Position numbers and translations under genes: made by a program. Source: Mayamaea pseudoterrestris (Eukaryota). From it: 64,000 nt of DNA. The first letter of the stretch is position 1. Each line of letters starts with the position of its first letter. Where the stretch lies: positions 2,666,001 through 2,730,000 of the forward strand of contig BROI01000002.1 of assembly GCA_027923505.1 (NCBI GenBank), read 5' to 3'. Positions 21,734-61,100 of this stretch are shown one piece after another. The notes beneath the pieces are model-generated. The model did no database searches. It worked only from the letters and a program-made list of their open reading frames with translations, and was not told where the DNA came from.

Positions 21734-22062
21734 TGACACAATATTATTGAGTTGAGTTGACCTGCGTCTCATGACAAGACGGTTAGCTACCTGTGTTTTG
21801 TATGCATTTAATCCTGTGCAGGGTTGAGTCACACTTGTGACCGAATCCTCACATACATGAGTGAAATCGCTGACGATCGAGGCGTGAACCTCGACCGTGA
21901 ACCCAGTGAGAACGAGAAAGAAGCGCACGAGTAGAGTAGCGAGTAACATGCACTATTCTAGCAATTGAGTTTGTTTGTTTGCTTTACGCTGGACGAAGAG
22001 GTTGATCGCTCCGAGTCCATTGTAGTCGCTGGAATAAAGGTTCGTCTGATATTATCGTGTCA
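21734..22062 (+). repeat. 5' LTR (329 bp)
   Basis: Runs TGACACAATATT to TTATCGTGTCA. I see two substitutions relative to the 3' LTR. Confidence 0.95.
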
Positions 22063-22077
22063 GATTAACAGTCTTGC
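22063..22077 (+). promoter_or_regulatory. Putative primer-binding site complementary to the tRNA-Asn(GUU) anticodon arm
   Basis: GATTAACAGTCTTGC directly follows the LTR. Its reverse complement GCAAGA-CTGTTAA-TC contains the Asn anticodon loop CUGUUAA. Confidence 0.65.
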
Positions 22078-22247
22078 TAGCTTGTCTTGACCTGAGAGAG
22101 CTGTGCGAAAGAGAGAGTGAAAGATCATTGAGAGCGAGAGAGACAAGACAGATTCCTTGCGGCGTCGTCAATCCGAATACTGGCACAAGAGAACAGGTCG
22201 TTTGGCTGACGCAGAGCGGTTGAAACTGGTGAAGGCTTGTCACTATC

Positions 22248-25200
22248 ATGGTTGCTGTCCCCAGACAGCTCGCATCAAAAGCGTTCTTGTTTTTGGAATG
22301 TAACCACCACGACCCAGATGTTGAGATTGACCAAGGAGCAAGAAGCCCCCTCCGCACAGCCCCCATCCCAGCTGGCGTTGAGCAAAGAAAGGCGCAGATG
22401 CGCCGACACGAGCCGGCCAAGAACCCGGCCGAAGAACAAGAAGCCGCCGTCCCAGAACGTCTGCGACATTAGCACCAGTCTCGTGAACCTTATCCTCGAT
22501 GCATGCGAATGGTTTAACATGCACGACGGACCCCCGAACACCAGGAAGTGGGCGTTGCTTGATTTAGGCAAAAGCGATTCCAGCAGAGACTCGCCGAACA
22601 AGAAGTCCGCGAGCGTGGAAGAAGGATACGTATGCTCGAGGCCAAGAAGAAGCAAGCCGAGCTACTTGCCAAGCACTCGAAAATGAGACCATCAAGGCTG
22701 AGAAGGCCGAAAAGGAAGAAGATGCCGCGGGTCTTCTCGAACCTCAAGACGAAACGAGACTACAAGGACTACAAAACGTTCAACATCCCCACGCGTGGTT
22801 GAGTTGGCCGCGTCTACCAAGGCAATCGCCAAGCTCCATGGCTGTTCTAACGTGCTTTCGACAGCAAGTACGTACCAGTCACGAAGAAGAGAAAAGAGTT
22901 CGAGAATCAGCAAGTCTTCATGTACACTGCGTTCCGCATTGTCTCGAAGTCCCTGGACACCAGTCGCTCCCTGATGAAGTACGGCGACAAGTCTGACGCT
23001 CAAAGCGTCTATCGTGAACTCGCGACCAAGTTTGGTTCCGGCAGTTAGCTACCCCACCAGGCGAACTGCAGGCCAAGCTGCGCGATTCGCCTTCGACCTG
23101 GACAAAAGGACACTACAAGTTCCTAAACTACATCGAACAGCTGCGAAGAATCTCGAAGAGTTCCGTCCTGGAGTGACGGATTGACAAGAAGAAGTACTAC
23201 TGGCTTCGAGCGCTGCGGAGGGTGACGAAGAACGCGCTAAAACGTGCCAGACTGATCGGAACAACGCATCATGGTGCAAAACTCCAGAGGCGGCCGCGCG
23301 AGATTTTGATTTTGACTATCTTTTCGACATGTTGTCGCAGCAGGCTTTGGTTCGCCCAACAAGAACGCCAAGGTTGAACAAGGGCAAGAAGAACGCCGAC
23401 CCCAAGCGAACAACGCGAACACTTCGGAGGCAGGGGACGGTGTAATGGACGCTCCCGGACGAGACGGCGGTGGCGAGACTGTGGACGTGGCACCCAATCG
23501 GGCCGCGGTTCCGGAGGACGAGGCTCGTCCGCGCCAGTACCAGCAGCCGACGCGCCAAGCGCATCGGAGACGATTCCCTGGCGGATTATCTGAACTTTGA
23601 ACAGTTGTTACAGAACCCCTGGTCGTCATGTCGTACGAACGACTCGGCCGACTTAACGAGGACGAATACGCTCAGCTCATGGCTCGACGCGAAGCCGTCC
23701 CAAGACCCGCCACAACAAGACGCGCGAACAACGGCAACCGCGCGAATAACCAGCAGTCACAAGCGGCTGCCTCGGTGCCTGGTACAATCCTGTATCAGAA
23801 TGACGCTGTCTCGATCGCCCCGACGACAGCCACTCAAGGTGCACCGGATGACATGATTAGATCTTTCCTTGCGAACGCCGCGTCGTCTCGCACTCAAGCT
23901 GCGAATAACACCCAGCAAGAGTTTATGGGAAGCGACGGCCGTCGGTACCGCGCAATGGTATCGGTGCGCTACACTGTGAATCGAGCTCGCAGCAACGAGA
24001 CCCGCCAAGGATCGCTGATTGACGGCGGTGCGAACGGTGGACTCGCTGGAAGCGATATGAGAATCTTGAGTACTACCAACCACACGTGTAACGTGACAGG
24101 TTTGAGCGACCACACGGTTCGCGACCTCCAAGTCGGAACTGGCGTCGCATTGATTGAGACTCGGACTGGACCCATTATCGGTCAGTTCAACCAGTATGCT
24201 TTGTACGACGGTGCTGAATCCATTCATGCACCATCGCAGCTTCGTTCGTTCGGCCATCTGATCGACGACGTTGCTCGCTCCCAGAATGGAACACAAGCCA
24301 TTGTCACCAGTTGTGGCAAGACCATCCCCTTGGCGATCCGCGACGGTTTGCCTCGAATGGATATGCGTCCACCGACGGACGCAGAGTTGGAAATGTATCC
24401 GACGGTCATTTTCTCTGCGGACACCCTTTGGGATCCGGCGGACTTGGACAATGAATGGAACGAAGAAGAACTTGAGTTTAATCGTCACCTCGACGAATTG
24501 GAAGAAACCCACGGTTTCGTCGACGCCCGCATGGATGACTTCGGCGACGCCACCTACCGGAACAACATGAATTCAGTGGAACGTGTGGTGCAGTATGTCG
24601 ATCGCAATCAGGCTGATACGACGCGCCAAGCCAATGCACGACGCATAATGCCACGCGAACCCCACTACCAAGCGCTTCCCCCCTACCTTGGCTACACGCC
24701 AATCGAACGAGTCAAGCGCACCATTAAGAATACGACACAGCTTTTCCGTGCATCGGCACACACCCCATTTCGCCAACACTTTAAGTCGCGATTCCCTGCC
24801 GCCAATGTGGTTCGTTTCCATGACGATACGGCGACAGATACCTGGTTTTCCAAGGAAGCCGCCTTTAACGACGGAATCCGCGGCCATGGCGGATGCAAGA
24901 TGATGCAACTGTTCGTCGGCAAGAAGAGTCTGCTGACGAGGGGATACCCACTGAGAACCGAGAGTGACATGCCCATGGCGCTCGAAGACTTCATTCGAGA
25001 CATTGGCGCTCCCGACTTGCTCATTAGCGATAACTCGCGAGTGCAGCTCGGGAAGCAAGTTGAAACCTTGTTGCGATTCTACGCGATTCGTGACCAACAG
25101 AGCGAGCCCGGATACCAGAACCAGAACCCTGCCGAGCGTCGCATCCAAGAAGTCAAGTCATCAGTCCAGAACATCATGAACCGTACGGGCGCACCCGCTG

Positions 25201-28023
25201 GAGCCTGGCTCCTATGCGCGCTGTACGTAATCGCCTTATTCAACAATCTGGCGACCGAGTCCCTCAACTGGAAGACCCCTACTGAAGCCGCCTTCAACCG
25301 AGTACCCGACATTTCACCGTTCCTGCAGTTCAAGTTCTGGGAACGAGTCCTGTACGAAGCTGGAGCCGACGAGCCGCCGACATTTCCTCACACCAAGGAA
25401 GCAGCAGGACGCTGGGTCGGCATTGCAGAGAACAAGGGTGACATCCTCACGTACCAAGTCCGATCCGATCGGACTGGAATGGTTGTCGTCCGATCCAACG
25501 TTCGCCCCTTCTCCGAAGGGCGTAACCTACGCGCTGAAGCTGAAAGCGCTCCTGAACCCGAGTCCGAACGACCGCTGTTCGCGGAACCTGTCTTCGACGC
25601 GCGCCCCGCGCGTGAACGAGTCCAAGTCGAAACTGTCGATGAGTTTGACGATGATTATGACCTAGTCGGTCCGGTGTTTGAACACGACCTTACACCGACC
25701 CCAGCGCCTGATTCTGGGGGAACCGTGGATGAAGACGCATTCACGTTGGAAAGCGCTGCCGAGTTAGCCGGTTTGGATCCCGACGGACCCATGCCGTCCT
25801 TTACTCCGGCTGAACTGATGGGACGCACTGTCCTTCTTGACGAGGAAGACGGCTCCACGCGACGTTACAAGGTTATCGAGCAACTGAACGATCGCGATGA
25901 AGCTAACCACAAGATTATCAAGTTCCGATTGAGCCTCGGTGACGGCGACGTCGACGAGCTTATTACATACAACGAACTAGCCGACCTGTGCGAACGGCAA
26001 GATTCTTTACGACTGGGGGACGATGACAACGACGATCAGTACTACAAGTTTGATTTCATTGACGGACATGAAGGTCCACTGACACAAGCCGACGCTACGT
26101 ATCGCGGCTCATCCTACAACTTGCTCATCCAATGGGCAAATGGCGAGAAGACCTGGGAGCCACTCGCATTGATTATCAAGTCCGACCCTGTGACCGTTGC
26201 CGAGTACGGCAAGCGCAAGGGTATGCTGGAAAAGGATGGATGGAAGCGCTTGAGGCGCATGGCAGGACGCACTAAACTGTTTAACCGCATGTGCAAGGCT
26301 GCAAAGAAGAACCGTGTCCAAGAAGCGCGTTTCAAGTTTGGCGTTCAAGTTCCTAATACCTGGAAGGAAGCAAACCGCCTCGACGCTGCTAATGGAAACA
26401 CCCTGTGGGCTGACGCCGTCAAGACTGAGATGGAGCAGCTACACGAGTACGACACTTTCATCGACAAGGGCATCGGTGCCTTCATGGAAAGTGACTGGAA
26501 GCGCATCAACGCGCATCTTGTCTTCGACTGCAAGAACGATCTACGACGTAAGGCCTGACTCGTCGCCGGGGGACATTTGACCGCTCCGCCCAAGGACTCC
26601 GCCTACTCCGGCGTTGTATCTATGCGAAGCATTCGAACCATAGCACTGTTAGCTGAACTGAACGACCTCAAGTTTTGGGCTGCCGATGTCGGTAACGCCT
26701 ACCTCGAGGCCAAGACCAAGGAAAAGGTCTACATTGTTGCCGGTCCCGAGTTTGGACCATTGGAAGGCCATACCTTGGTCATCTACAAGGCACTTTACGG
26801 ATTGCGCACTTCTGGCGCGTTGGCATGAGCACTTTGCCGACACACTCCGCGACATTGGATTCTACCCAAGCTACGCGGACCCTGACGTCTGGATGAAAGA
26901 CTGTGGCACTCACTACGAGTACGTCGGCGTGTTCGTCAACGATCTGGCTATGGCCATGAAAGATCCACAAGCCTTCACAGACCTCCTCAAGGAGAAGTAC
27001 AAGTACAAGTTGAAGGGCGTCGGCGACATCAAGTATCACCTTGGAGCTGATTTCTATCGCGACCCTGATGGAACCCTCTGCATGAGCGCGAAGACCTACG
27101 TCGGTCGCATGCTCAAGAACTACGAGACCATGTTTGACGAGAAGCCACGCAAGCGCAAGTCACCGCTTGACGACGGGGACCACCCCGAACTTGACCTTAC
27201 CGAAGAGCTGGATGCCCGTGGCATTCAACAGTACCAGTCTCTTATCGGTGCCCTCCAGTGGGCAGTGACCCTATGTCGACTTGACATTCATTGTGCCGTA
27301 ATGACACTTGGCCGATTCCGCTGCGCCCCGCGCCGTGGACACCTGGACCGAGCCAAGCGAGTCTGCGGTTACCTAGCTGAGTACCCTGATGCGGCGATTC
27401 GTTTCCGGACGAAGATCGTCGATCACGGGGAACCTACCAAGTATGATTGGTTGCAATCGGTCTACGGCAACTCAAGCGAAGAGCTTCCGTGGAACATGCC
27501 GATCCCGAAGGGCAAGCCTGTGCAACTAACTACCTTTATGGACGCGAACCTGTACCATGATTACACTACTGGATGTTCCGCAATGGGAGTCCTGCATTTC
27601 CTGAACCAGACGCCCGTCGAATGGTTCTGCAAGCGTCAGAATACTGTTGAGACTGCAACGTATGGATCCGAGTTCGTCGTCGCCAAGACCGCGACGGAAC
27701 AGATTATGGATTTCCGATACTCCCTACGTATGTTGGGAGTTCCTTTGAGTGGACCAGCCTGGATGTTCGGCGACAACGAAAGTGTCAAGAAGTCGTCAAC
27801 GATTCCGCACTCCACACTTTCTAAGCGACACAATGCGCTCGCCTACCACCGAGTTCGCGAGGCCATTGCAAGCAATGTTCTGTACTTTGAGCACATCTTC
27901 GGCAAGCAGAACGTCGCCGACGTTCTTACCAAGTTCTTGCCGCATGCCACGTTCCGACCCCTGATCATTCCGATTCTTTTCTGGAAGGGTGATACGGCAA
28001 ACCGATCGTTGTCACAAGCCTAG
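22248..28023 (+). pseudogene. gag-pol polyprotein with frameshifts and a premature stop
   Basis: Protease SLIDGGANGG; integrase DTATDT/ISDNS/QNPAERRI; RT KA*LVAGGH, ADVGNAYL, KALYGLRTSG, YVGVFVNDL; RNase H TFMDANL, ETATYGSEF, QNVADVLTK. The gag start is approximate. Confidence 0.9.
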
Positions 28024-28034
28024 ATCAAGGGGGA

Positions 28035-28363
28035 TGACACAATATTATTGAGTTGAGTTGACCTGCGTCTCATGACAAGACGGTTAGCTACCTGTGTTTT
28101 GTATGCATTTAATCCTGTGCAGGGTTGAGTCACACTTGTGATCGAATCCTCACATACATGAGTGAAATCGCTGACGATCGAGGCGTGAACCTCGACCGTG
28201 AACCCAGTGAGAACGAGAAAGAAGCGCACGAGTAGAGTAGCGAGTAACATGCACTATTCTAGCAATTGAGTTTGTTTGTTTGCTTTACGCTGGATGAAGA
28301 GGTTGATCGCTCCGAGTCCATTGTAGTCGCTGGAATAAAGGTTCGTCTGATATTATCGTGTCA
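28035..28363 (+). repeat. 3' LTR (329 bp)
   Basis: Preceded by the PPT and near-identical to 21734-22062. Confidence 0.95.
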
Positions 28364-28629
28364 CAACGCATAGCGAGCCAACATTTGATGGAAATGGCCT
28401 ACAGGGGCAGTGGTAGAGGGCCACACTTTAGCACCATGAGGCTGCCAATGCTGTCCTACCATGATAGTGGAATAAGGCCATGCACATTATATTCTCAAAT
28501 GCATCGTTTTATGAGCCATAAAATGATGGGTCTAGCCATTGTTCCTGCTATATGCCACCTGCTCTGGCACCCACAAGCAAATGGATAGATCCAGTCTTGC
28601 GCACAAACCCCAAAAATATACAAGTGACT

Positions 28630-29345
28630 GCTGTTTCTGTAACAGAATTGGGGACTAGATGGGCTAGTGATGAATGCATGCTCTTTCTACATCATGAAAC
28701 AATGCCTGTTAACTGCCAGCTATCAACGTATACGCCTCTGGCAGTTGGTGTAGGTTATGGCAGCCACCGACTGTGGACAAGCCTGGGGCCGCAAAATTCA
28801 GGCAGTCCCGAGACAGAAGTTGGAGACTACCTGGACTAGTGCTGAATGCATTACACTTTCTACATCATGAAACAACGTTTGTCAACTGCCAGCAATTTAG
28901 TAATACTTCTCTGGCTGTTGGAGTGGGTCATGGCAGCCACCGACTGTGGACAAGCCTGGGGCAGCAAAATTCAGGCAGTTCCTGAGACAGAAGTTGGAGA
29001 CTACCTGGGCTAGTGATGAATGCAAAATGCCTGTCACATTTCAGCTATCCGTATATTTTTATGGCTGTTGGAGTGGGTTATGGCAGCCAGAAACTATGGT
29101 CAAGCCTGGGGCCGCGAAATTCTGGCAGTCCTACTGGCAGAACTTGGAGACTGCATGGGCTAGTGATGAATGCATAGCACTTTTTACATCATGGACCAAT
29201 GCCTGTCAACTGCCAGCTATCAATGTATACCTCTCTGGCCATTGGAGTGGGTCACGGCAGACAGCGACCGTGGACAAGCCTGGGGCCATGAAATTTAGGC
29301 AGTCCCCGTTGGCCTTGCATGGCAATGTGACGGGCTAGTGATCAA
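28630..29345 (-). repeat. Degenerate satellite A, reverse orientation, about 4 copies
   Basis: AACTTGGAGACTGCATGGGCTAGTGATGAATGC and GCCTGTCAACTGCCAGCTATCAA are reverse complements of satellite A. Confidence 0.9.
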
Positions 29346-30091: not shown

Positions 30092-32208
30092 ATGGAGCGC
30101 GGCGATGCACGTCAGCGGCGCGGCAGAACGACCAAGCCATCAACCAACCACCATCTCGGCAAGAAAGAAGGAAGCGCAGATGCTTTCAACATAGCCTTGG
30201 AGAATAATATGTATAGAGATACAACAATAATGAGTCATGATAGAAAGATAATAGTTGAGATCAGCAGACTAAAGCGACATGGCAGCAGGAGAAATCGCGC
30301 GACAGACGTTCCTCAACGACGACTCTTTCTCGCCTTTGTCATGGCATCATGTATGCTTGCCTCATCGGTAAATGCATGGACTACCAAGAGCAGTCACGCA
30401 ATAATGCCGTTACGAAACTCTCCCTTAAAAATGTCAAGGAGGAATCCATTGCTACTTCACTCGACCTCATCGTCGGCATCATCCTCGACTTCTTCATCAT
30501 CAACAACTACTTCTTCCAACAATAATCCTCAATCAAGTCCAAAATCATCAAGTCCATTCATATACGACTCGAAATATATTCGCAATTTCTCCATTGTCGC
30601 CCATATCGACCATGGTAAGAGCACGCTGGCGGATCGATTGCTCGACACGACGGAAACTGTGGCCGTGCGTGACATGGAGGCGCAGCTGCTGGACAATATG
30701 GATCTGGAGCGAGAGCGAGGAATCACCATCAAACTGCAAGCGGCGCGGGTGCTGTATAAAGCAAAGGATGGACATGACTAGTGAGTAATTTTAACGTCTT
30801 TTTCGGGTCCAGTATGCAAACATTTGCAACTATGCAGAGAACTATCTCACATTGACGCTGCCTCCTGTCGACTTTCTTTTTTAGCATTCTAAACTTGATT
30901 GACACTCCAGGCCACGTTGACTTTGGCTACGAGGTGAGTCGATCACTCGCCGCCTGCGAGGGCGCGCTGCTGGTAGTGGACGCTGCCCAAGGAATTGAGG
31001 CGCAAACCTTGGCGAACGTTTACCTGGCGCTCGACAATAATTTGGAAATCATTCCAGTGCTCAACAAGATTGACTTGCCAGCGGCGGAGCCAGAGCGCGT
31101 CAAGCAGGAAATTGAGGAAACCATTGGGCTGGACTGTTCGGATATTGTGCATGCTAGTGCCAAGGCTGGGATTGGTATTGTGGATATTTTGGAAGCCATT
31201 GTGCAAAAGATTCCGCCTCCGCCGCAGGCAACGGGTGGACCCTTTCGGGCACTAGTGTTTGATAGTTACTATGATGCGTATCGCGGAGTCGTGGTCTTGT
31301 TTCGCGTCGTCGATGGAGCCGTCAAGCGGGGCGACAAGGTGCGGTTTCTCAATTCACAGGCCGAGCATGAAGTGGTCGAAGTGGGAGTCATGACGCCAAA
31401 CCAGATTCCGGTCAATCAGCTACAGGCTGGTGAGGTTGGGTACTTGTGGGGTAATATCAAGGTATGCGCTGGTAGCCTGTTTGCTTTGGATGAAACCTTG
31501 TATATTTTTCATTGCTGGTCGACTGACCTTGTGTCTGCTTGCTTCAACAGGACGTCATGGACGTTCCGATTGGTGACACCGTTACTAACGCCAACGAATT
31601 TAAGACGGCCCGAGCGAAGGGATTGGATCCACCAATTGAACCACTGCCTGGATATTCAGAGAGTAAACCCATGGTATACTGTGGACTCTTTCCGACTGAC
31701 GCTGACGAGTATGAAACACTTCGCGTCGCCCTTGGCAAGCTACGACTTAACGACGCGGCCTTGTCGTTTGAGCCAGAAAACTCTGGCGCCATGGGTTTCG
31801 GCTTTCGATGTGGATTCTTGGGTCTGCTCCATATGGAAATTGTTCAGGAACGGCTGTCGAGAGAGTATGACCTTGACTTGATTGTAACGGCACCATCTGT
31901 GGTGTACAGAGTTGAACGGAAGAATGTTAAGGGACCAGACCTCATCATTGATGCGCCAGCTAAAATGCCTGATCTCGGCAGGGACGATATTGCGAAGGAA
32001 CCATTTGTCAAGATGGAGATTTTGACTCCCAGGTACGTCCTATTTAGTGTTTTTGCGTTCATTTGTTCGTCGGTGGCTCTGACTTGGATCGTACACGTAT
32101 TTCCCTCTATTTAGCGATTATAACGGAGCAATCATTGAACTTGGTCAGGAACGTCGCGGAATTTTGATCGACATCAAATACTTGACCCCACTTCGATCAA
32201 CAATTATC
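30092..32208 (+). CDS. lepA: Plastid-targeted elongation factor 4 (LepA/GUF1), 3'-truncated
   Basis: [45 protein letters not shown] and [14 protein letters not shown]. Introns at 30781-30884, 31462-31550 and 32033-32114. Signal peptide ends ...SVNA-W followed by a Ser-rich transit peptide. Start codon uncertain. Similarity stops at ...PLRSTII. Confidence 0.92.
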
Positions 32209-35225: not shown

Positions 35226-35707
35226 ATGCTGGTGTCAATGCAATGATTTCGGTCCGACTCGTCCAGTCTCCAGAACGATCGTCCTTTCCGCCGGCGCAAA
35301 AAAGTGTGTCGTACATGTTTCGTTGCGACTAATTTTAACCAATCGAATCGCAAATATGGTATTTCGCTGCGACATGCTCCAGCCAATCATAGTGCGCGAA
35401 ACGTCAAGCAGCGAAGACAACCACCATGAGCAAAACATCAACACAACCTCATTCTACCTTTCAACCCTCGTCATCGTGGGCTACCATACAAGTTAAAGGG
35501 GTGTGTAAAAGTGTACAGTAGTGATCACTCGAACTTGATTTACAGCAAGATATCACTTCGGGAACGACATTTCTCAGCCATTTACTACAGGCACATCAAA
35601 GGTCGAAAGAACAAGCAAAACTTCACTCACTCCAACAGCAAGACACGACCGAGAATACCGGTCATTCATCCATTGCTACAGTCATCTATAGCACTTAATT
35701 AATCATC

Positions 35708-38700
35708 ATGGGAAACTCTCCATCAACAGCCCGCCAGATCATTCCTGTCGAATCTAACGACCAAGCCTTTTGGGATTCGAGTCCAATTCTGCAGCAGTTT
35801 CGCGTGCAGACTCAGTTTGGCTCCGGCAGTGGCCGCATGATGCGAACCGTTTCGCTAAGACACAGTCAGAAACAATCAACTTGTGTTGGAAAACTAATGT
35901 ACATACCAGTCTCCATCGACACGACGCAGCAAGAAGCTGAAATCAAGCGATTGCAGGAATTGAAGAAATCAATGAATCTGCAATCAAACAATGTTGCCGT
36001 TTGGTCCGTCTTGAGTGGCAATTCGTTGCGCATACAAAACCAATGGTACAAGCCAGTCGCTCTACTGCGGCCGTATTTGTATACCACGCTGCGCGATCGA
36101 TTGGCGTCGCGGCCGTTTTTGGATTCCATCGAGCAAGTTTGGATTGCCGCGCAACTTTTGAGTGCACTGGATCATTTGCACCGCAACGCCATTGTGCATG
36201 GGTTTGTCTCCACGTCAAACGTTGGATTGACTAGTAGTGGATGGGTGGTGCTTCTTGATATAAGTAGCGTCTACAAGCCGTTTGTCAGTCTACCGGATGA
36301 TGATCCATCCGACTATCTGCTGGCCTTTCACTCGGAACGATGCTATCTTGCGCCGGAACGGTTTTGCAAGTCGTCCATGGTGCAATCGGCAAATAAGAAT
36401 GTCAGTGTAAACGCAAATAACATGGGCATAGATTCTGTCTCGTCAGAATTGACTCCCGCCATGGATATATTTGCCGCTGGATGCGTTTTAGTCGAACTCT
36501 TTTTGAACGGAGAGCGGTGCATGGACCTTGGAGACTTGATGGAGTATCGGCGAGGCAATTCCTCCTCGGTGCAGCAAACTCTTGCCAAGGTTGAGCACGC
36601 TGCCATTAGGGCCGCTTGTAAACACATGCTTAGTCTCGATCCAAGGGAACGTCTTTCGGCGCGCGAGTATTTAGATCGGCTCGAAGCGCAGGAGGATACC
36701 GTACCGAAAAGTTTGAAGCTCCTGACGGATCTGGTTGGACGCGCGACAAGCGCCTTGATACCGGATGCGAGAATCGCCTTGGCGGCGCAGGAATTTGGTA
36801 GAGTGGTTTTTGAGTGCGTGGGTGTGCATGACGCTGAGGGCACGCAACATTGTAATAGAATGCTGGGGCCGGATATGGTTGGATCGGACGAGAACCAAGA
36901 GCTTTCCGGTTATTCTTCTTCGCCGACTTCTGTCGTGACCATGGAACAATTATTTGCTGAAACAGATGACTTTCTAAAGCAATTGGAAGCTTTTGAACTT
37001 CATGGAGCATTGCCTTCGCCCACACAGGATACAGTTGCAATGCCAAAGATAACGGACGCGATGAATATGGTAGTTGAGCAATCGCTACCGAGTACCAGGT
37101 CACTACTTATATACTTGCAGCTCATTTTGTCAACCATTCGACATGTGCAACGCCCATCGTCTAAACTTGTGGCTTTGCAAATAATACAAAGACTTGCTCG
37201 GTACATACTGGACGAAGTGAGATTGCAACGCATTGTCCCTGTTTTAGTGTCAATGCTTCAAGACCAGGATCATTTGGTGCGAGCATCTGCCATTTTAAAT
37301 CTCACGTCGGTACTTGCTCGTCTGGATAGTTTCTCGCCCTCGGACTCTAAACTGTTTCCCCAGTATATTTTTAAGCGTGTATCACACCTTATCACTGATC
37401 CTTCTGCGATGGTACGCATCGCTTTCGCGAGTAGTATTGGCGCATTGGCCGAATCCGCGCTGCGGTTCCTTGATATCAGCCACGCTGTACGACTATACGA
37501 AGCAGTTGGTAGCGGCACTGGACAAATTACCCCAATCAAAGAAGCTTCTCCGAAAGAAGAGCTGACAATGTTTGCGGACGACGTGGCGAATCTGCTTGAC
37601 AACTCAGACGCCACGCGGCCTAATGACGAGTCTAAATTTGGCAAAGTTGATGGTACATCAGCGGCAGCTGCATCAGTCTTGATCAATAGTAATTACAACG
37701 AGGATTTGTCTAGTCTGCATGAAACAGTCTCACGTTGGGTCGTCCACATTACAACTGACCAAGCCGCGGATGCGACTCCCGTGAAACGTGCACTGCTGAG
37801 TGACATTGACCGTCTCTGCAATTTTTTTGGTTTGGAAGGCGTCATGTCATTTATTCTCCCTCAAATTCTGGCTTTTTTAAATGATCGGATTGATTGGGAG
37901 CTACGATCAACATTGTTCGATGCCCTCCCTTGTGTTTGTCGAGTGATGGGCAGGGCTGCTACGGAAGAATTTGTCATACCGTGTGTGGAGGTTGGTCTGA
38001 TTGACATGGAGGAGCTTGTTGTAGAGCGTTCTCTGGTGTGCCTGTCGCGACTTATTGAGTTGAATCTTCTTTCGCGCGGGATGATAATTGGAAACGGCAA
38101 GAAGTCTAGCTTTGTTGAACGATATGGAGCTCTACTGTTACATCCGTCAACTCGTATTCGAGCAGCAATTATTCAGACCTTGTCAACCGCGATGAAAGCG
38201 CTTGGATTACTGGATTCCGAAATCTTAATACTTCCTGCGCTTAGATCATACTTGCGTTATCGACCTTCCGCCCTCGAGATTGTCGAGTCAAACGGATTAG
38301 AGTCGTGCCTACGCGACCATTGGACGCGGGAATTATACTGGGATGCGCTGCAACGAATAACAGTACACCTCCAGCATGCTATTAGCGCTAAAGATGGAGC
38401 TTGGACGACGATCGATTCTGATTTTAAAAATCATACTGGCACTTTCGACCGCGATTCGTTGTCTAACGTCCAACATGACGTTGGCGAAATGACGAGCTAT
38501 CTCCAGATGCTTGCAAAACACTCACTTTACAGCGGCCAACGTGAAATGAGAGGCTGCCGCACCCTTTCAAGGCTGGAGGCAGGTATAGAAGGATCTTTGA
38601 AACAAGCGCAAATTATCATGTTTCCACGACAAGATGTCAGATCGAAGCTTGACTTTCTGCCGACATGGTATGATGCGCTTCGCGAAGCGTCACTAAATGA

Positions 38701-40405
38701 GCATCTGCAAGTGTCAGAGGCAACCATGATTCGAACTGTATCAATGCTTGGCCATGTATACGGTCTTTCGATCATGGGTCCAGCGACCACTGTTAATATT
38801 GTGGGCGCAGATGACGATGCTCGGTATAAAGATTCGTCCCAGGACCTGAGTGCTCTTCGATCGACATCGTCAAAAAGAGTCGAAGCCTTATTTCGGGGTC
38901 AATGGGGATCGGAAACAACTATCGATCCAGAGCTTTGTGATACAACCCTTTTAATAACGAAGTTAAAAGCCCTGGGTGTTCCGCCACTGCCATATAACCT
39001 GGGCACAGCCATGGAGTCGACATCTCAGCCTAAACGAGGGCCTGGCAAATCAATAGAAGCCAATGATTGGAGGCCAAGAATGAACTCTCTTGTCGCCACA
39101 AGCACTCGAATCCATGGTCACAGTGCGCCAATAATGCGTTTAGCGGTAGCATCTGACAATAGATTTTTTGTATCTGGCAGTCACGATGGAACTTGTCGCG
39201 TTTGGGAAACGGCACAGATTGAAGACTCACTTGGCGTATTAGAAAGTAGCCTTGTCTACTCCAGCCATGCGGTCCTTAAACCGTCGCGCGTCAACGATGT
39301 TGCCATTATTGAAGGTAGCCATTCCGCCGTTTCTTGTGACAGTAATGGAGCAGTTCATGTCTGGCGTGTCGAGCGTGAACTGAAGGGACAAGGTGGTAAA
39401 GACAAAGTAAAGACAACGGGTACCAGCACCGTTCGCACACTTCAAAAAGAGGAAGGCGAAATATTCGCAGTGTCTCATTTTAATACTTTGTCGGAATCTC
39501 TCATTACTTTTGCAACCCACAGTGGTCGCGTGCACTCATGGGACTTGCGCTCTGCTGACGAGCCATTTCTCCTGACGCACAGTGCAGAGCTCGGTCACTT
39601 GACGAGCTTGGTGGTTGGCAGTGATCGGAACTGGATAATATCGGGTACTAGTCGAGGTTATGTGGCGCTTTGGGATGTTCGCTTTCAAAAGGCAGTGAAG
39701 CTTTGGCGTCACAGTCGCCGTGCGCCCATTAGCCGCCTTGGCACATCGATGTCTACGCCACCGCAGAGTTGGGGGTCCTTGTCAAAACCGTTACGTGAAC
39801 CCAGACCTTCAATATTTATCGCCTCGGGCGAGAATGAGTGCTCAATGTTTGACGCCATCTCCGGATCGTGCAATGAATGTTTTAGAGTCGTCGCAAGCGG
39901 CTCTGGAGAGTCGGTATTGCACAGGGAGCCGCTACCAGTGTTGATAGACGTCAGCATTGCGCCTCTTCGGTATGGATGTCTCAGTCCCCGTAAGTTAGAT
40001 TTCCCTAGTGTTCATCCTGGATATTTCTCTTCGCTGGATTCAATCAAGGCGCTGGTTGGAAGTATAGGCGGCTCTGGCCGCCACAGCTATCTCGTGACAG
40101 GTGGAAGTGACAGCATCATCCGATGTTGGGACTTTGCAGTACCATCAAAATGTTATGAGATCAGCGGGCAAGGTCGCACTCGGTTGCCACCATCGTTCGA
40201 GCGTATCGACTTCGATAACGAGCATAGACTGATGCTCTGTTGTCAGCCCCAGTCAACGAGGGAGACGAGCAGCGGTTCTCAAGGGCTTCGACTGCCTGAA
40301 AGCGTTTATACAGATTCGGTCGAGGATCTGAAAATATTCGAGCATCGCGCAGACAGCTTTCTCGTTAGCAGCGGACGAGACGCTTTGATCAAAATCTACC
40401 ACTAG
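35708..40405 (+). CDS. VPS15: Phosphoinositide 3-kinase regulatory subunit 4 (VPS15)
   Basis: 1565-aa ORF. MGN myristoylation start, kinase domain (LRDRLASRPFL, YKPFVSLPDDDPSD, CYLAPERF), HEAT repeats (VRLQRIVP, FLNDRIDWELR) and C-terminal WD40 repeats. Confidence 0.95.
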   Translation: MGNSPSTARQIIPVESNDQAFWDSSPILQQFRVQTQFGSGSGRMMRTVSLRHSQKQSTCVGKLMYIPVSIDTTQQEAEIKRLQELKKSMNLQSNNVAVWSVLSGNSLRIQNQWYKPVALLRPYLYTTLRDRLASRPFLDSIEQVWIAAQLLSALDHLHRNAIVHGFVSTSNVGLTSSGWVVLLDISSVYKPFVSLPDDDPSDYLLAFHSERCYLAPERFCKSSMVQSANKNVSVNANNMGIDSVSSELTPAMDIFAAGCVLVELFLNGERCMDLGDLMEYRRGNSSSVQQTLAKVEHAAIRAACKHMLSLDPRERLSAREYLDRLEAQEDTVPKSLKLLTDLVGRATSALIPDARIALAAQEFGRVVFECVGVHDAEGTQHCNRMLGPDMVGSDENQELSGYSSSPTSVVTMEQLFAETDDFLKQLEAFELHGALPSPTQDTVAMPKITDAMNMVVEQSLPSTRSLLIYLQLILSTIRHVQRPSSKLVALQIIQRLARYILDEVRLQRIVPVLVSMLQDQDHLVRASAILNLTSVLARLDSFSPSDSKLFPQYIFKRVSHLITDPSAMVRIAFASSIGALAESALRFLDISHAVRLYEAVGSGTGQITPIKEASPKEELTMFADDVANLLDNSDATRPNDESKFGKVDGTSAAAASVLINSNYNEDLSSLHETVSRWVVHITTDQAADATPVKRALLSDIDRLCNFFGLEGVMSFILPQILAFLNDRIDWELRSTLFDALPCVCRVMGRAATEEFVIPCVEVGLIDMEELVVERSLVCLSRLIELNLLSRGMIIGNGKKSSFVERYGALLLHPSTRIRAAIIQTLSTAMKALGLLDSEILILPALRSYLRYRPSALEIVESNGLESCLRDHWTRELYWDALQRITVHLQHAISAKDGAWTTIDSDFKNHTGTFDRDSLSNVQHDVGEMTSYLQMLAKHSLYSGQREMRGCRTLSRLEAGIEGSLKQAQIIMFPRQDVRSKLDFLPTWYDALREASLNEHLQVSEATMIRTVSMLGHVYGLSIMGPATTVNIVGADDDARYKDSSQDLSALRSTSSKRVEALFRGQWGSETTIDPELCDTTLLITKLKALGVPPLPYNLGTAMESTSQPKRGPGKSIEANDWRPRMNSLVATSTRIHGHSAPIMRLAVASDNRFFVSGSHDGTCRVWETAQIEDSLGVLESSLVYSSHAVLKPSRVNDVAIIEGSHSAVSCDSNGAVHVWRVERELKGQGGKDKVKTTGTSTVRTLQKEEGEIFAVSHFNTLSESLITFATHSGRVHSWDLRSADEPFLLTHSAELGHLTSLVVGSDRNWIISGTSRGYVALWDVRFQKAVKLWRHSRRAPISRLGTSMSTPPQSWGSLSKPLREPRPSIFIASGENECSMFDAISGSCNECFRVVASGSGESVLHREPLPVLIDVSIAPLRYGCLSPRKLDFPSVHPGYFSSLDSIKALVGSIGGSGRHSYLVTGGSDSIIRCWDFAVPSKCYEISGQGRTRLPPSFERIDFDNEHRLMLCCQPQSTRETSSGSQGLRLPESVYTDSVEDLKIFEHRADSFLVSSGRDALIKIYH

Positions 40406-45903: not shown

Positions 45904-46168
45904 GAAACGATCGGAGCGACTGTGGGTACTAATAGTATAGACTCTTTACGTCGCTAATAATGTATGTACCGTAGCGATCTTGGCAAAAACGAAACCGTGG
46001 ACAATCACCATGGTCATAGCGATGTGCTGAAAACGCGCTAGTGACATGCGGAACCGGGACCAGGAAATTAGTCCCGCTACGACTCCAACGAGAGCTGCAG
46101 AGCGACGACCATGGACAACATGATGGATCTGCATGCCAGCAGCATCATCCTCTAACCAACCATAGACA

Positions 46169-48652
46169 ATGAGAATTCGCTGTATAACACAGTGCATAAT
46201 ATGGTTCTTTTTATTTGCTGTCGATGCCCGTCAGATTCCGTTGCCTCATCTATCGGAGAATCTAGACGGACGAGTGTACGACGATGATCAAGCACTGCCA
46301 ACGACGCAGCAAACTCATCCCAATCAACCTCCGCAGCATTATATACCTGCGTTGACGATTGATCCTTCCGTTGCGACACTGATAAAAGCGGCTTATGCTC
46401 GCCTCGTGACCCTTATCAGTCATAAACCACCAGTCGGCATTGTTTTGTCAGCCGTCATGTACCGACTTGTTGTCAAGGGCCGTCTGTTTAGACTCCACGA
46501 CGCCAAAGATAGCAATCAACCTGGACGGGGCCGAGCAAGACGGAGGGAAAAATCTCATCGAGCAATAGTATTAGACGAGAATGATCAGTTATACGTTACG
46601 CAAGGAGGCGTCCAGTCTGTTCGAAGAAGGCTGCTACAATCGATCACTGCAAGTCTTTTGGAATTTCACCCATTGGCACATCGTTCAACTTTAGATGATC
46701 ACGCAGTAAGACCAGCCATTGTACTTCTCGAAGCGATGGTTGCATGTCTCAAGGTTACGCATCACCCTGGCTCTTTAAAAGTAGGCTACATTCGAGATTT
46801 GATTGAGCCATACTCTCGACTGCGTTCCTTGTCCAGCGATGCTTCTATACTTCCCAGCCGCATTGGCAAGCACGAGGAAGTACTTGATCCAATCGAAAAG
46901 CAGAGGATACTCGATCTTTGCTTGGCTACCATGGATGTTTGCTTGACGGACGCCCTTCTGCGACTCTGTCGTGATCGCCTGCTGTCAAGTAGTCTTCGAC
47001 TGGCTCGTGCCAAGGAATACTGGAAGCGAAGGGTGAATGGTCTGCAAGGTCTGCCCAAACTCTTTCCTCTTGACAAGCTCGTCGAAGGGGACCGGATGAG
47101 ACTTTCTTTGGCATCAGCTGCCTTGCAACAAGAGCTTACAAGACTTGGTCAAATTGGGGCTGTATTGTTGGACACGCCCACGGATATTCAGCAAGAATTG
47201 TTGATTAAAGCACTACGCGAGTCGGATAGTGAACGACGCAATGAAAAGCAGACAGGAAAGCCCCAACATGACAACCAGAAACCATGGCACATACCCAACC
47301 TAGGTTCGTTATCTAACAAAGCCTCTCAATATTACCGAGACAACTCGTTTCATTTTCGAAAAATGGGAAGCGGGGATATTCGGGGCAAGGCGGCCATTGC
47401 ATGCCTGTCGGACAAATGGAATGAACAAGACGCTTGGATGAGGACGACCAGCGGTTGGAGTATCCGTGCCAAGCGCTTCCTTTGTGCGGTTGTACAAGAT
47501 ACTCTGACCAACAGCGTCCCAGGGGACGAATTTAATGCCGCAGATTTCTCAGCGTTGGAGAAATTATATTGCGCTTCGCCATTGCAGCCGAAAAGTATGG
47601 GCGTGGAGCTTGCAAAATTTATCAAGTATGTGGAGAGCATGTCAGCTTGGAGACGCGTCGGAGAAGGCAAAGAGCTTCGTCTAGGAGATACATTCATTGC
47701 AGACTGGTCAAGGAGGCTGGATTTTTTAGGCATACCTTCATCGCTTCTTGCTGTTTGGGTTGCCACGCGAGCTCATGCAATCTTACAACCATACTGGCCT
47801 CGTTTCAGACAAGAAGCTATTGACTTTGCGACCAAATCAAAAGAAATTGTCTTTACTAGACTCGTTATTCCGATACAAGAAATTGCGGCCGATATTCTCA
47901 ACAAACACCCGGGAATGATGGCAGGCTTTGGGCTTGACGAGGAAAGCTCGTCGCTTGACCGCATGCTTCGAGACATGGGATTCGGCGACGGGACAGAAGC
48001 TTCTCGACACGAAGCGCTAATGCAAGCGACCGACGAGTATGAGAAAGATCTGCAGAGTAGCCTATTTGGAATGTTGGTGAAAGGAAGGCTTGTTACGCTG
48101 TTACTTTTACAAATGCAGCAGCTTAAAGTTGGTCTATTGTCAGCACTAGCTGACATTGATGTCTTGATGCAGGGAAATCGAATAAATTTTCAGCTCATGG
48201 CAGCAATTCCAGCAGTCGTTCTTGTATACTTTGGCGCTCATTTTTCAATGCGTCGGTTGTACAATATCCGAGCCAAAGACTTGCGACCCGTCACTGCAGT
48301 GCATGCGGACATGACAATCTACCTCAATGACATGGAGCGAGTCATTTTGTCGACAACCGAAACAATGGGCGACTGCAACAACGTAAATCTACGCCAAGTC
48401 TCATCACCTTCGCTGATATCACTGTTGTCTTACTCTGAATATGGACGGTGGATGTTGACGATGCACCGCTATCTCATTCTACTGGATTATTCTTCGCCGC
48501 CATATCCACAAATGAGCTGCAGCGACATTCACTTGTCCCTTCTGAGCTTTGGAGGTCGCAACGGAGCACTATCAACGTCGGGGAGTGCTCGGAACTTGGA
48601 GATATTACGTCGAATACAGCAAAAGCACGAGGGATTGAATAAATTTTTGTAA
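46169..48652 (+). CDS. NCA2/DGS1-like protein
   Basis: 827-aa ORF. YEKDL...GRLVTLLLLQMQQLK...DIDVLMQGNRINFQLMAAIPA matches the NCA2 domain pattern as I recall it. Confidence 0.75.
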   Translation: MRIRCITQCIIWFFLFAVDARQIPLPHLSENLDGRVYDDDQALPTTQQTHPNQPPQHYIPALTIDPSVATLIKAAYARLVTLISHKPPVGIVLSAVMYRLVVKGRLFRLHDAKDSNQPGRGRARRREKSHRAIVLDENDQLYVTQGGVQSVRRRLLQSITASLLEFHPLAHRSTLDDHAVRPAIVLLEAMVACLKVTHHPGSLKVGYIRDLIEPYSRLRSLSSDASILPSRIGKHEEVLDPIEKQRILDLCLATMDVCLTDALLRLCRDRLLSSSLRLARAKEYWKRRVNGLQGLPKLFPLDKLVEGDRMRLSLASAALQQELTRLGQIGAVLLDTPTDIQQELLIKALRESDSERRNEKQTGKPQHDNQKPWHIPNLGSLSNKASQYYRDNSFHFRKMGSGDIRGKAAIACLSDKWNEQDAWMRTTSGWSIRAKRFLCAVVQDTLTNSVPGDEFNAADFSALEKLYCASPLQPKSMGVELAKFIKYVESMSAWRRVGEGKELRLGDTFIADWSRRLDFLGIPSSLLAVWVATRAHAILQPYWPRFRQEAIDFATKSKEIVFTRLVIPIQEIAADILNKHPGMMAGFGLDEESSSLDRMLRDMGFGDGTEASRHEALMQATDEYEKDLQSSLFGMLVKGRLVTLLLLQMQQLKVGLLSALADIDVLMQGNRINFQLMAAIPAVVLVYFGAHFSMRRLYNIRAKDLRPVTAVHADMTIYLNDMERVILSTTETMGDCNNVNLRQVSSPSLISLLSYSEYGRWMLTMHRYLILLDYSSPPYPQMSCSDIHLSLLSFGGRNGALSTSGSARNLEILRRIQQKHEGLNKFL

Positions 48653-58181: not shown

Positions 58182-61100
58182 TGTGAGCTTATCGCTCCGC
58201 TACATCGACCATGGAAGATCATCCGATCAATCCGTTTCTTTCAATCACATTACATCAGTCGTAACTGGTCGTTCCATTCATACAACGCATCCACACGTCG
58301 GTTGCGCACTTTCTTCATTCACATGTCACATACGACAGCTGCGGACTCGACACAAGCTAATTAGGGTTCGGGCTCTTGACTTCGCCGCTCTGCGACTTGT
58401 CACTCCCCTCGGGTACGCTGCTCGTCGTAGCCGCATTCTTGTCCTTCACAATCGCATACGATGTATCGCCGCACCAAAACAATACTGGCTTGAGCAATGG
58501 CATCGCATCACAGTACGGCAGGTACTTCGTCAGTATCGTCCGCAATGTTCTCCTTTCCGTCAATCTTCACAACTTGAGTAATCCGCAGCAACTGCCCAAC
58601 GAACACGATGGTAGGCCAACGCATTGTGTCGCTTGGACAATGTCCGAACTCAGGATTGTAGATTGTGTAATCACTGCTTGGTTGTCTCCGTACATCCAGG
58701 CAGACTTCTCCAATGGCGTACGCCCATAGCCATGAGCGATGCGCGTCGAGAAATGCTGATATCCGTTCCACTCTTTGCTACCGCCGACTTCCGATCCGGG
58801 TCGCAGTCTCGACTGTGGCCTGGAGTTTGCAATGCCAGTCGATTGGCGTTCTGGTTGACAAATGACAAAAAACTCCTTCCAATGACTTGCCTGTCACCAT
58901 GCAATCCATGAGCACGCATCCTCGAAAGTTGATGTTCGTACAGTCACACCCTTTGGCGGTGGGTGCAGACGTCCAACATCTCATCAACTCCGTCCTTCCC
59001 GTGAACGCTGCGCTCCAATCTTGTTCCTCCATGGTGCCGAAGTGCTCCTCGTTGGCTCCGTTCGTACGGAAACGGATTGCTGCGTCCGGTAACTCTCGCA
59101 AATATCCACAGACTCGCTTCACCCGCTGCAGGTGTCCCTTGCGCGGCTCCACACGGAATCGCGACAGACTCACAACTGCTACGGCAATGTCAAATCGTCC
59201 CAAAGTAATCGCCCACTGAAGTGCTCCGACTAGAGACTGGTAAATCTTCTTCTCTTGGTCGTTCAGTAGCTCGCTTTGGTCAAGTTCGGGATGATCGTCT
59301 TTGTCGATTGGTGATGAATACTTCTTCGGAGGACCTTCAAACAACCGCTCGTACTGCGCCAAGAGTTTCGCAACGTAGGTCTTGGCCGACCAGTAAAGAG
59401 TTCCATCAGGGTCTCGTCCAAAGTCACCGCCGAGATGATACTCGGGATGTCCAACACCTTTGAGCTTAAACTTGTACTTCTCCTCTAGCATCTTGAAGAA
59501 CGCTGCTGGATCGTCTGAAATATTCAACAGATCGTCGACCCATACACAGAGGTAGTCGTAGCTGTCGCCGGCGTCCTTGATCCACAGATCGGAATCGCAA
59601 TAGGACGGCTTCCACCCTTCCGCAAGTAGGGCGTCGGCTAAGCGTTCGTGAAATCGTGCTCCGCTCGTTCGCAATCCGTACAAAGCCTTGACGATGACCA
59701 GGATGTGTCCTTCGCGCTCCCCGAACTCGGGGCCTCCAACGAAGTATACCTTCTCCTTGGTGAACGCTTCGAGATAAGCATTCCCAATGTCACCGACCAT
59801 GCACTTCTTGCCGTTCGCTTCTCCAATGACGAGAGCTAGACGCATTGCCTTCAATGAGATAACACTGGAGTAGGCATCGTCGTTGTCTTTCGTCATGTGG
59901 CCGCCTGCAACGAGACGTGCCTTGTATCGCAAATCGTGCTTGACATCGTACACAAAATGGACTCGGATCTTCTGGTAACCAGTTGGTGGTGTTGTGGTGG
60001 AACTCGGACCGAGATCTTGAAACGTCTCGTACTCGTCCAGGTTCGCAAGCTCCACGCCTTCTGCATCCGTCCACTTCGTGTGTCCTGCAGCTTCTTGTAG
60101 ACGTCGCGCTTCCTTCCAATCTCGGGGTACTTGGACTCCAAACTTGTAGCGCGGTCCGTTCTTCTGCTGCTCCATTCGGGCGATCGCCACCTTGCGCGCA
60201 ACCTTCTTGGCGTTCCGGGCCCATCGATTCAACGATGTCCATCCGTCCTTGTCGAGAAGATTATGCTTTTGCGCGTAGGCTGCCACTGATACTTTGTCGC
60301 TTTCGATCATCGCGTTGAGAGGCTCCCAAGTCTTGGATCCATCGTCCCATTGTACAAGGACGTTCCACTTGGAGTGCTTCCAGTTCTTCGACTTGCTCGT
60401 CAGCGGACCCTGATGGTCTAGAATCTCCTTGAAGAACCATTTACGCTCAGGATTCGCCATGTCTTGGTTCACTTCGGCCTCGTAGAGATCGGAAACCTCG
60501 ACATACGACATGATTTCGTCCGCTTCGCCGTTGCCAAGCTTCAGCATCATTTTAATGTTCTGATGGTTCTGGGCGTCGCGGTTGTTCAGCTTGCTCATGA
60601 CGGTCGCTCGAACTTCTTGCCCGTCGTCCGTCTTCATGAGAAACGACTTGCCGATAAGTTCATCGGGTGCATACTTCGGGAGTTTGCGCCACGGATTGAT
60701 GTTCTTCTTCTTCGGCTTGTCGTCGTCGTCATCGTCATCGGCAGGATTCGGATCTAGCTCCCCGTCGGTCATATCGTCGTCTTCCGGGTATTCCACCGTC
60801 TCGACCAAAGGGGTATCGTCTTCGTCAGGAATGAAAGAATCATCGTCTCTGCTGTCGGCGTCGGTAATCTTCTTGATCATTTCCGGCATAAGGATCTCGC
60901 CACCTAGACCAGGTACGGTATAGAGACGCGGCTCCCCTTCTTTCATGACTGGGGAAGCAGGTGCCGGTACGCGAAGGTTCAAAAATTTTGGGTCATTTCG
61001 GGGTAAGCAAACCGATCGCGTCATGATCTCGTGGGTCTCGCAATCACAGATGAAGTACGTCAGGTCGTCTCCGCACGTCGTGTTGGGACCAAGCCAGTAC

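Follow-up and report, generated by a model that had tools for sequence, protein, structure and literature searches.

A putative primer-binding site for a tRNA-Asn half in Ty1/copia elements of the diatom type

The 64,000 nucleotides of Mayamaea pseudoterrestris DNA analyzed here (contig BROI01000002.1, positions 2,666,001 to 2,730,000; hereafter, the window) contain a Ty1/copia element whose 5' long terminal repeat (LTR) is followed by no TGG to pair with a tRNA 3' end, which raises the question of how reverse transcription of this element is primed. The initial annotation, made from the letters alone, had proposed that the bases after the LTR are complementary to the anticodon stem-loop of tRNA-Asn and that a cleaved tRNA-Asn serves as the primer.

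The element is a broken copy on the plus strand (21734-28363), recognized by its LTR pair and its copia-type reverse transcriptase (RT). The 329-bp 5' LTR, which has TG...CA ends, lies at 21734..22062 and the 329-bp 3' LTR at 28035..28363, with two mismatches between them; the polypurine tract AAGGGGGA (28027..28034) lies directly before the 3' LTR. Tblastn with the 1987-aa open frame of a family copy located a gag-like region with several indels at 22276..23625, where the match is only piecemeal (32% in one frame). A 985-aa open frame follows (23601..26558), containing a protease-like motif, a presumed integrase, a chromodomain-like stretch recognized by its conservation (26040-26240) and the start of the RT, and ending at an in-frame stop (26556-26558). 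The remaining RT and the RNase H lie in a different frame at 26662..28023 (Pfam RVT_2, E 1.1e-8), and a change of tblastn frame indicates a frameshift near 26817. The Pfam search of the 985-aa frame returned no match, nor did integrase have a Pfam match in the window element; PF00665 was matched in 2 of the best 120 of 1,923 homologous proteins. These best 120 are nearly all unnamed environmental sequences, and the single eukaryote-named protein among them is from a diatom (67% identity). In the open frame of the family, the protease-like motif (653) precedes the RT (1477-1689) and the point where RNase H ends (1952). The RVT_2-type RT, the order protease-integrase-RT-RNase H, the two TG...CA LTRs and the polypurine tract together identify the element as Ty1/copia. 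Although 5-bp target-site duplications are present in three of seven other family copies examined, none was found in the window copy, whose flanks read CTTTG and CAACG; its left flank is the same as that of copy L118, which has a CTTTG duplication, and the window copy is therefore probably a recombinant of two insertions.

Starting at the first base past the 5' LTR, positions 22063-22077 of the plus strand read GATTAACAGTCTTGC, without a TGG. The reverse complement of this sequence is found letter for letter in the host gene G000:C23:41577-41649 (L005/L036), a tRNA-Asn(gtt) by ARAGORN's call. If the anticodon is taken as 34-36, the site is the exact complement of positions 26-40, and base 16 past the LTR breaks the match. 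Searching the genome with a pattern for the predicted anticodon arm gave five places, of which this ARAGORN gene is one; an Rfam search of the genome gave 50 tRNA matches, 49 of which are called by ARAGORN and one of which is Asn, and a further pattern, any Asn loop with a T-arm after it, again yielded this tRNA-Asn(GTT) gene alone. No tRNA gene lies within the 64-kb window. At a fixed place, an exact 15-base match to any of the 3,773 host tRNA bases has a chance of ~3.5e-6, the register being uncounted. Among the 49 host tRNAs, taken with and without an added CCA, the best match to the site is Asn 26-40 rather than the 3' end used in canonical 3'-CCA priming. The complementarity that the initial annotation had read from the letters is thus confirmed as flush with the mapped LTR, and the exact 15-base match in the sole tRNA-Asn gene found answers its expectation that the host gene would contain the sequence.

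The site is shared by other elements of the same genome. The 13-mer core of the site occurs at 60 places, against one for the reversed control; these comprise the tRNA gene, the window's family (family 1) with 40 places, a second family with four, and 15 others. In 14 of these 15, an LTR-like end is followed by the full site, and the remaining one has C for the first G. An identical site is carried by all 30 distinct family-1 junctions, a count that is biased because the query contained the site. The family survey covered full-length stretches at 55 places, chosen among the family-1 places, the core sites and 150 RT matches, in which LTR pairs were sought and many had no usable pair. In six families, the window's and five others, GAT starts on the first base past the LTR in the same register; the LTRs of these families have no cross-family blastn match, and their RT/RNase H regions are 54-99% identical to that of the window element. 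Perfect 14-15-base sites are found in families 1, 2 (four copies) and 3 and in one family-6 copy. In family 2, two bases are inserted opposite positions 32-33 in 48 of 53 copies; in family 4, 38 of 39 copies match only positions 33-40 contiguously; and C stands opposite position 37 in family 5 and in a family-6 copy. Families 2 and 4 are sister families with imperfect sites in the majority, which runs against a tidy picture. The RT tree divides this genome's families between two clades, and TTG, the stem of the host tRNA, is present wherever the stem part of the site is kept. Two of 59 sites lie within ~850 bases of a tRNA gene (G000:C26:92766-93665 and G000:C3:541965-542539; Arg-TCT, Glu-TTC), which may be chance.

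Duplexes predicted for unmodified RNA favor tRNA-Asn over other tRNA halves. The window site pairs with the Asn half at -26.0 kcal/mol, versus -20.1 kcal/mol for the next best half (Phe), and Asn ranks first for eight of the nine sites tested. For the family-5 site, tRNA-Phe(GAA) ties with Asn (-17.9 versus -18.0 kcal/mol), and for one family-6 variant it narrowly beats Asn (-17.7 versus -16.7 kcal/mol). The host tRNA-Asn(GTT) (L036) and tRNA-Phe(GAA) (L040) have an identical anticodon stem, and the family-5 and family-6 sites that start with GATC (L175, L179) pair about equally well with either half.

Relatives outside this genome were collected by an RT/RNase H alignment search, which confirmed at least 588 stretches; the best 80 of these yielded 79 metagenomic loci with 48-67% identity. 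A search of viral_contigs gave no relatives. The motif GATTAACAG is present on the element strand in 51 of the 79 loci, several of which are near-duplicates, and on the opposite strand in two, compared with eight loci for the best other control loop of the form GATTNNNAG; GATTAACAGTC is read in 47 of the 79. The matches sit where LTR ends are expected, either 260-870 bases past the RNase H (collapsed contigs) or 4.4-5.8 kb before the RT, the LTR ends of most loci being placed by position and by the CA/TA dinucleotide; the two bases before GATTAACAG are CA in 43 cases, TA in seven and CG in one. The strict motif is missing from 28 loci. Two of these, L199 and L214, carry a variant that differs in one base, and most others are too short to tell; L209, in which both LTRs are visible, has a different sequence past its LTR, and L222, L258 and L264 have no such site in the expected region. 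The conservation beside the LTR on which the initial annotation had made its reading depend is therefore found both in other families of the genome and in metagenomic relatives. The stem triplet facing tRNA positions 27-29 varies among the 53 labelled loci (GCA 22, GTA 8, TTG 7, TCG 6, others 10) and switches many times on the RT tree, a quick IQ-TREE result in which rows L176 and L110 are partial or family-4-like and have no site of their own. This pattern suggests that the site may track the tRNA-Asn stem of each host, the host stem being known for this genome alone.

We conclude that these 15 bases very probably serve a diatom-type Ty1/copia clade as primer-binding site and that minus-strand DNA of this clade would start from a 5' fragment of cytosolic tRNA-Asn(GUU) comprising nucleotides 1-40. 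By analogy with copia and Ty5, a cut after C40 would sever the anticodon stem of tRNA-Asn, the arm opened in this way would pair with the element RNA, and RT would extend the 3'-OH of C40 into minus-strand DNA. A cut after C40 would set the LTR border exactly at the end of the match, where it lies in every family. The copia/Ty5-like geometry noted in the initial annotation places the primer end at nucleotide 40, as described for Hemivirus (PMC1181622), and the putative priming by a cleaved tRNA-Asn is well supported. Additionally, classical half-iMet sites ending at 40 are present in distant families of the same genome (L153, L160, L162), which suggests that a cutting route exists in this host. 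Small-RNA data from Phaeodactylum tricornutum were size-selected at 18-35 nt, and the Asn fragments reported there are mostly 19 nt (PMC4247016); because of this size selection, a 40-nt fragment could not appear in them.

In most tRNA-Asn, positions 32-37 are modified. The pairing that matters would be that of primer bases 38-40 with part of the stem, and mismatches or bulges opposite loop positions 32-37 would be tolerated. That imperfect sites do so well suggests that the element RNA is what usually passes the site on, with no re-copying from the primer in each round. A reversion test in family 2 compared 3.1 kb of internal sequence from 29 of 53 copies (four perfect, 25 with the insertion). 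The four perfect copies do not form one clade (AU p 0.0008), the family is a mosaic, and all four have a nearby SNP that is found in only two of the 25 others; common descent with recombination thus explains the perfect copies at least as well as reversion.

The same genome and window contain further features. In a distant Copia family (L157, G000:C9:617262-617284, minus strand; C15:14777; C28:340399), 14 bases flush with the LTR complement positions 11-24 of the iMet D-arm, pointing to a putative primer of ~23-24 nt; our literature search found nothing on an iMet D-arm primer site. Other Copia families (L169, L180, L182, L184) have a 12-base palindrome directly past the 5' LTR, without a tRNA match, that resembles the hairpin site of GalEa elements in fungi (PMC5445492). 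TG...CA ends are missing from several abundant families, which instead have TT...AA, TG...TA or other ends and yet near-identical LTR pairs (L101-L104, L164-L167; L171-L174; L152, L160, L162, L186, L190). A 174-bp tandem array occupies the window start from 342 to ~21700 and reappears at 28364-29330, copies of its unit lying directly upstream of the 5' LTR, and many copies of these Copia families (L101, L105, L118, L119, L164, L165, L170 and L172) lie within similar ~170-bp arrays; possibly the chromodomain-like region directs the elements to satellite heterochromatin. The RT of a second Copia copy lies at ~59350-59990 on the minus strand (G000:C2:2725351-2725986); its score class and a nearby site (C2:2730310) point to family 4, with the 5' LTR just past the window end. 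Pfam matches also identify three host genes in the window, encoding an EF-Tu/EF-G-type GTPase (30856-31881), a VPS15-like kinase-HEAT-WD40 protein (35699-40405) and an NCA2-family protein (46166-48652).

Three other explanations of the site were weighed against priming by the tRNA-Asn half. In the first, intact tRNA-Asn or its anticodon arm is bound at the site in the service of packaging, dimerization or regulation, and the tRNA is cut only after binding or priming proceeds from another end. Cutting before and cutting after annealing are indistinguishable by sequence, and imperfect sites thrive in families 2 and 4; nevertheless, the match ends at position 40 exactly on the LTR border in families with unrelated LTRs, as predicted if the 3' end of the primer defines the LTR end, and there is no TGG site, so that we consider binding of the intact tRNA improbable. 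Still less probable is self-priming from the element RNA, as in Tf1, or from a hairpin site of the fungal GalEa type, with the tRNA likeness as a relic. The palindromes past the LTR of the distant families L169, L180, L182 and L184 would fit such a route, as would the 12 bases of the family-4 LTR that are identical to tRNA-Asn 22-33. However, the best pairing of the site with its own LTR (-13.3 kcal/mol) is matched by 28 of 100 shuffled LTRs (mean -12.2), seven of eight other sites likewise do no better than shuffles, the exception being a rearranged junction, and a relic would not be expected to stay invariant across elements that are 50-67% identical in RT. A chance match, or a captured and functionless tRNA scrap, has nothing but the short length of the site in its favor and is scarcely credible given the low chance expectation at a fixed site and, above all, the conservation in 51 of 79 distant relatives, which refutes it.

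Two junctions bear on whether bases of the tRNA-Asn primer can enter the DNA. At L105 (G000:C16:705730-705752), two LTRs are joined through GAT, the inserted bases being the complement of tRNA-Asn 38-40; a search of LTR-LTR junctions found this as the only such joint in family 1, and the LTR-LTR joints L167 and L182 have no insert. L096/L110 (G000:C23:508202-508227, minus strand) has a fold-back order of a family-2 LTR end, a family-4 LTR end, 19 bases and an inverted family-4 LTR (1-289). The 19 bases complement tRNA-Asn 22-40, family-4 sites do not have them, and the in-register continuation is absent from all 13 other views of the family-4 LTR. We rejected the 19-base match as a longer primer site, as it lies in a rearranged junction and not at the site of an intact element. 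L096/L110 is possibly a fossil of copied primer, in a single case. An alternative reading is a microhomology joint that links the 8-base family-4 site to the 12-base tRNA-like stretch in the family-4 LTR, but the in-register landing would then be luck. As single junctions, L105 and L096/L110 give a hint of occasional copying of primer bases into DNA. We speculate, as a tentative idea that we do not favor, that the whole diatom-type Copia clade has long been locked on half-tRNA-Asn and that its site follows the anticodon stem of each host since RT usually copies only primer bases 38-40 into plus-strand DNA and occasionally runs on through the modified loop, so that the site is rewritten, the L105 and L096/L110 joints being fossils of this process. 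If this is true, these elements would provide genomic evidence of primer identity and a route for the coevolution of primer site and host tRNA.

Half-tRNA priming as such is established: in copia and Ty5, synthesis starts from the 3'-OH of nucleotide 40 (PMC1181622). The window element shares with copia, Ty5, Osser and 1731 a site flush with the LTR and a primer 3' end at 40, its site adjoining the 5' LTR and complementing an anticodon stem-loop up to that position. Those elements use initiator tRNA-Met, whereas the site here matches tRNA-Asn and not the host iMet, the iMet primer being that of the named members of the genus; moreover, half-tRNA priming was demonstrated by experiment in copia and Ty5 (PMC1181622) and is read from sequence in the window clade. 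The element thus appears to work like a Hemivirus and is not filed as one. Primers other than Met are also described, as plant Osser, Bryco and Gymco-II are assigned half tRNA-Met and Bianca half tRNA-Ile (PMC6317226), and fungal FunCo1 an internal tRNA-Lys site, ATTAAGAGTCT (PMC5445492). These lineages share lineage-specific half-tRNA sites, including non-Met ones, with the window clade and differ in tRNAs and hosts (PMC6317226, PMC5445492). The tRNA-Asn sites given in the plant survey are 3'-end sites, unlike the anticodon-arm site of the window element (PMC6317226).

The initial annotation knew of no half-tRNA primer from tRNA-Asn, and in this respect it has to be corrected: a tRNA-Asn-GTT anticodon-loop primer is in print for Helenus, a group of non-autonomous LTR elements of rust fungi (Kojima 2024, PMC10886601). 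That paper states a single adoption of tRNA-Asn-GTT as primer among the Helenus elements of fungi; its section 3.6 also says 'Asp' in two places, including for the primer of the partner Copia-6_PHord. Eight internal sequences of the supplement start with (c)gattaacagtcgaa or with a form of it that differs in one base, the same GATTAACAGTC core, which settles the Helenus primer as Asn and not Asp (PMC10886601). Helenus differs from the window clade in its fungal host, its non-autonomy, another stem triplet and, mostly, one spacer base before the site; and the choice of Asn, made once in the Helenus lineage, marks a broad clade of full-length elements in the present case (PMC10886601). This paper is the only source in which we found Asn half-tRNA priming, subscription papers, Repbase and GyDB being outside our reach.

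Among diatom elements, the window element resembles CoDi-A/CoDi-I as described in three papers (PMC2806351, PMC2774666, PMC5348765), which report lengths of 6.2-7.3 kb, a chromodomain-like stretch between integrase and RT, and some families without TG/CA ends. A conserved 67-aa stretch occupies the expected place of a chromodomain at the integrase C-terminus, although the Pfam Chromo profile matches one of 37 members (E 0.05) and a profile search against PDB sequences finds no chromodomain. Compared by description, the element likely belongs to CoDi-A. Term searches of the main texts of these papers (PMC2806351, PMC2774666, PMC5348765) gave no mention of a tRNA primer site, and no described primer site for diatom Copia was found in the literature; as subscription papers, Repbase and GyDB were outside reach, its absence is unproven.

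Since the mechanism and this tRNA have both been published for other hosts, the surprise is modest: the choice of tRNA is published for fungi and apparently not for the diatom clade. Our analysis names a likely primer for a widespread diatom-type Copia clade for which no primer description was found, and it provides an annotation rule, an LTR end followed by GATTAACAGTC, for sites missed by tools that seek tRNA 3' ends only. Fungi and diatoms both reach the Asn anticodon arm, which suggests that position 40 is open to cutting in some tRNAs only; such a restricted set of cuttable tRNAs would bear on the question of which enzyme makes half-tRNA primers.
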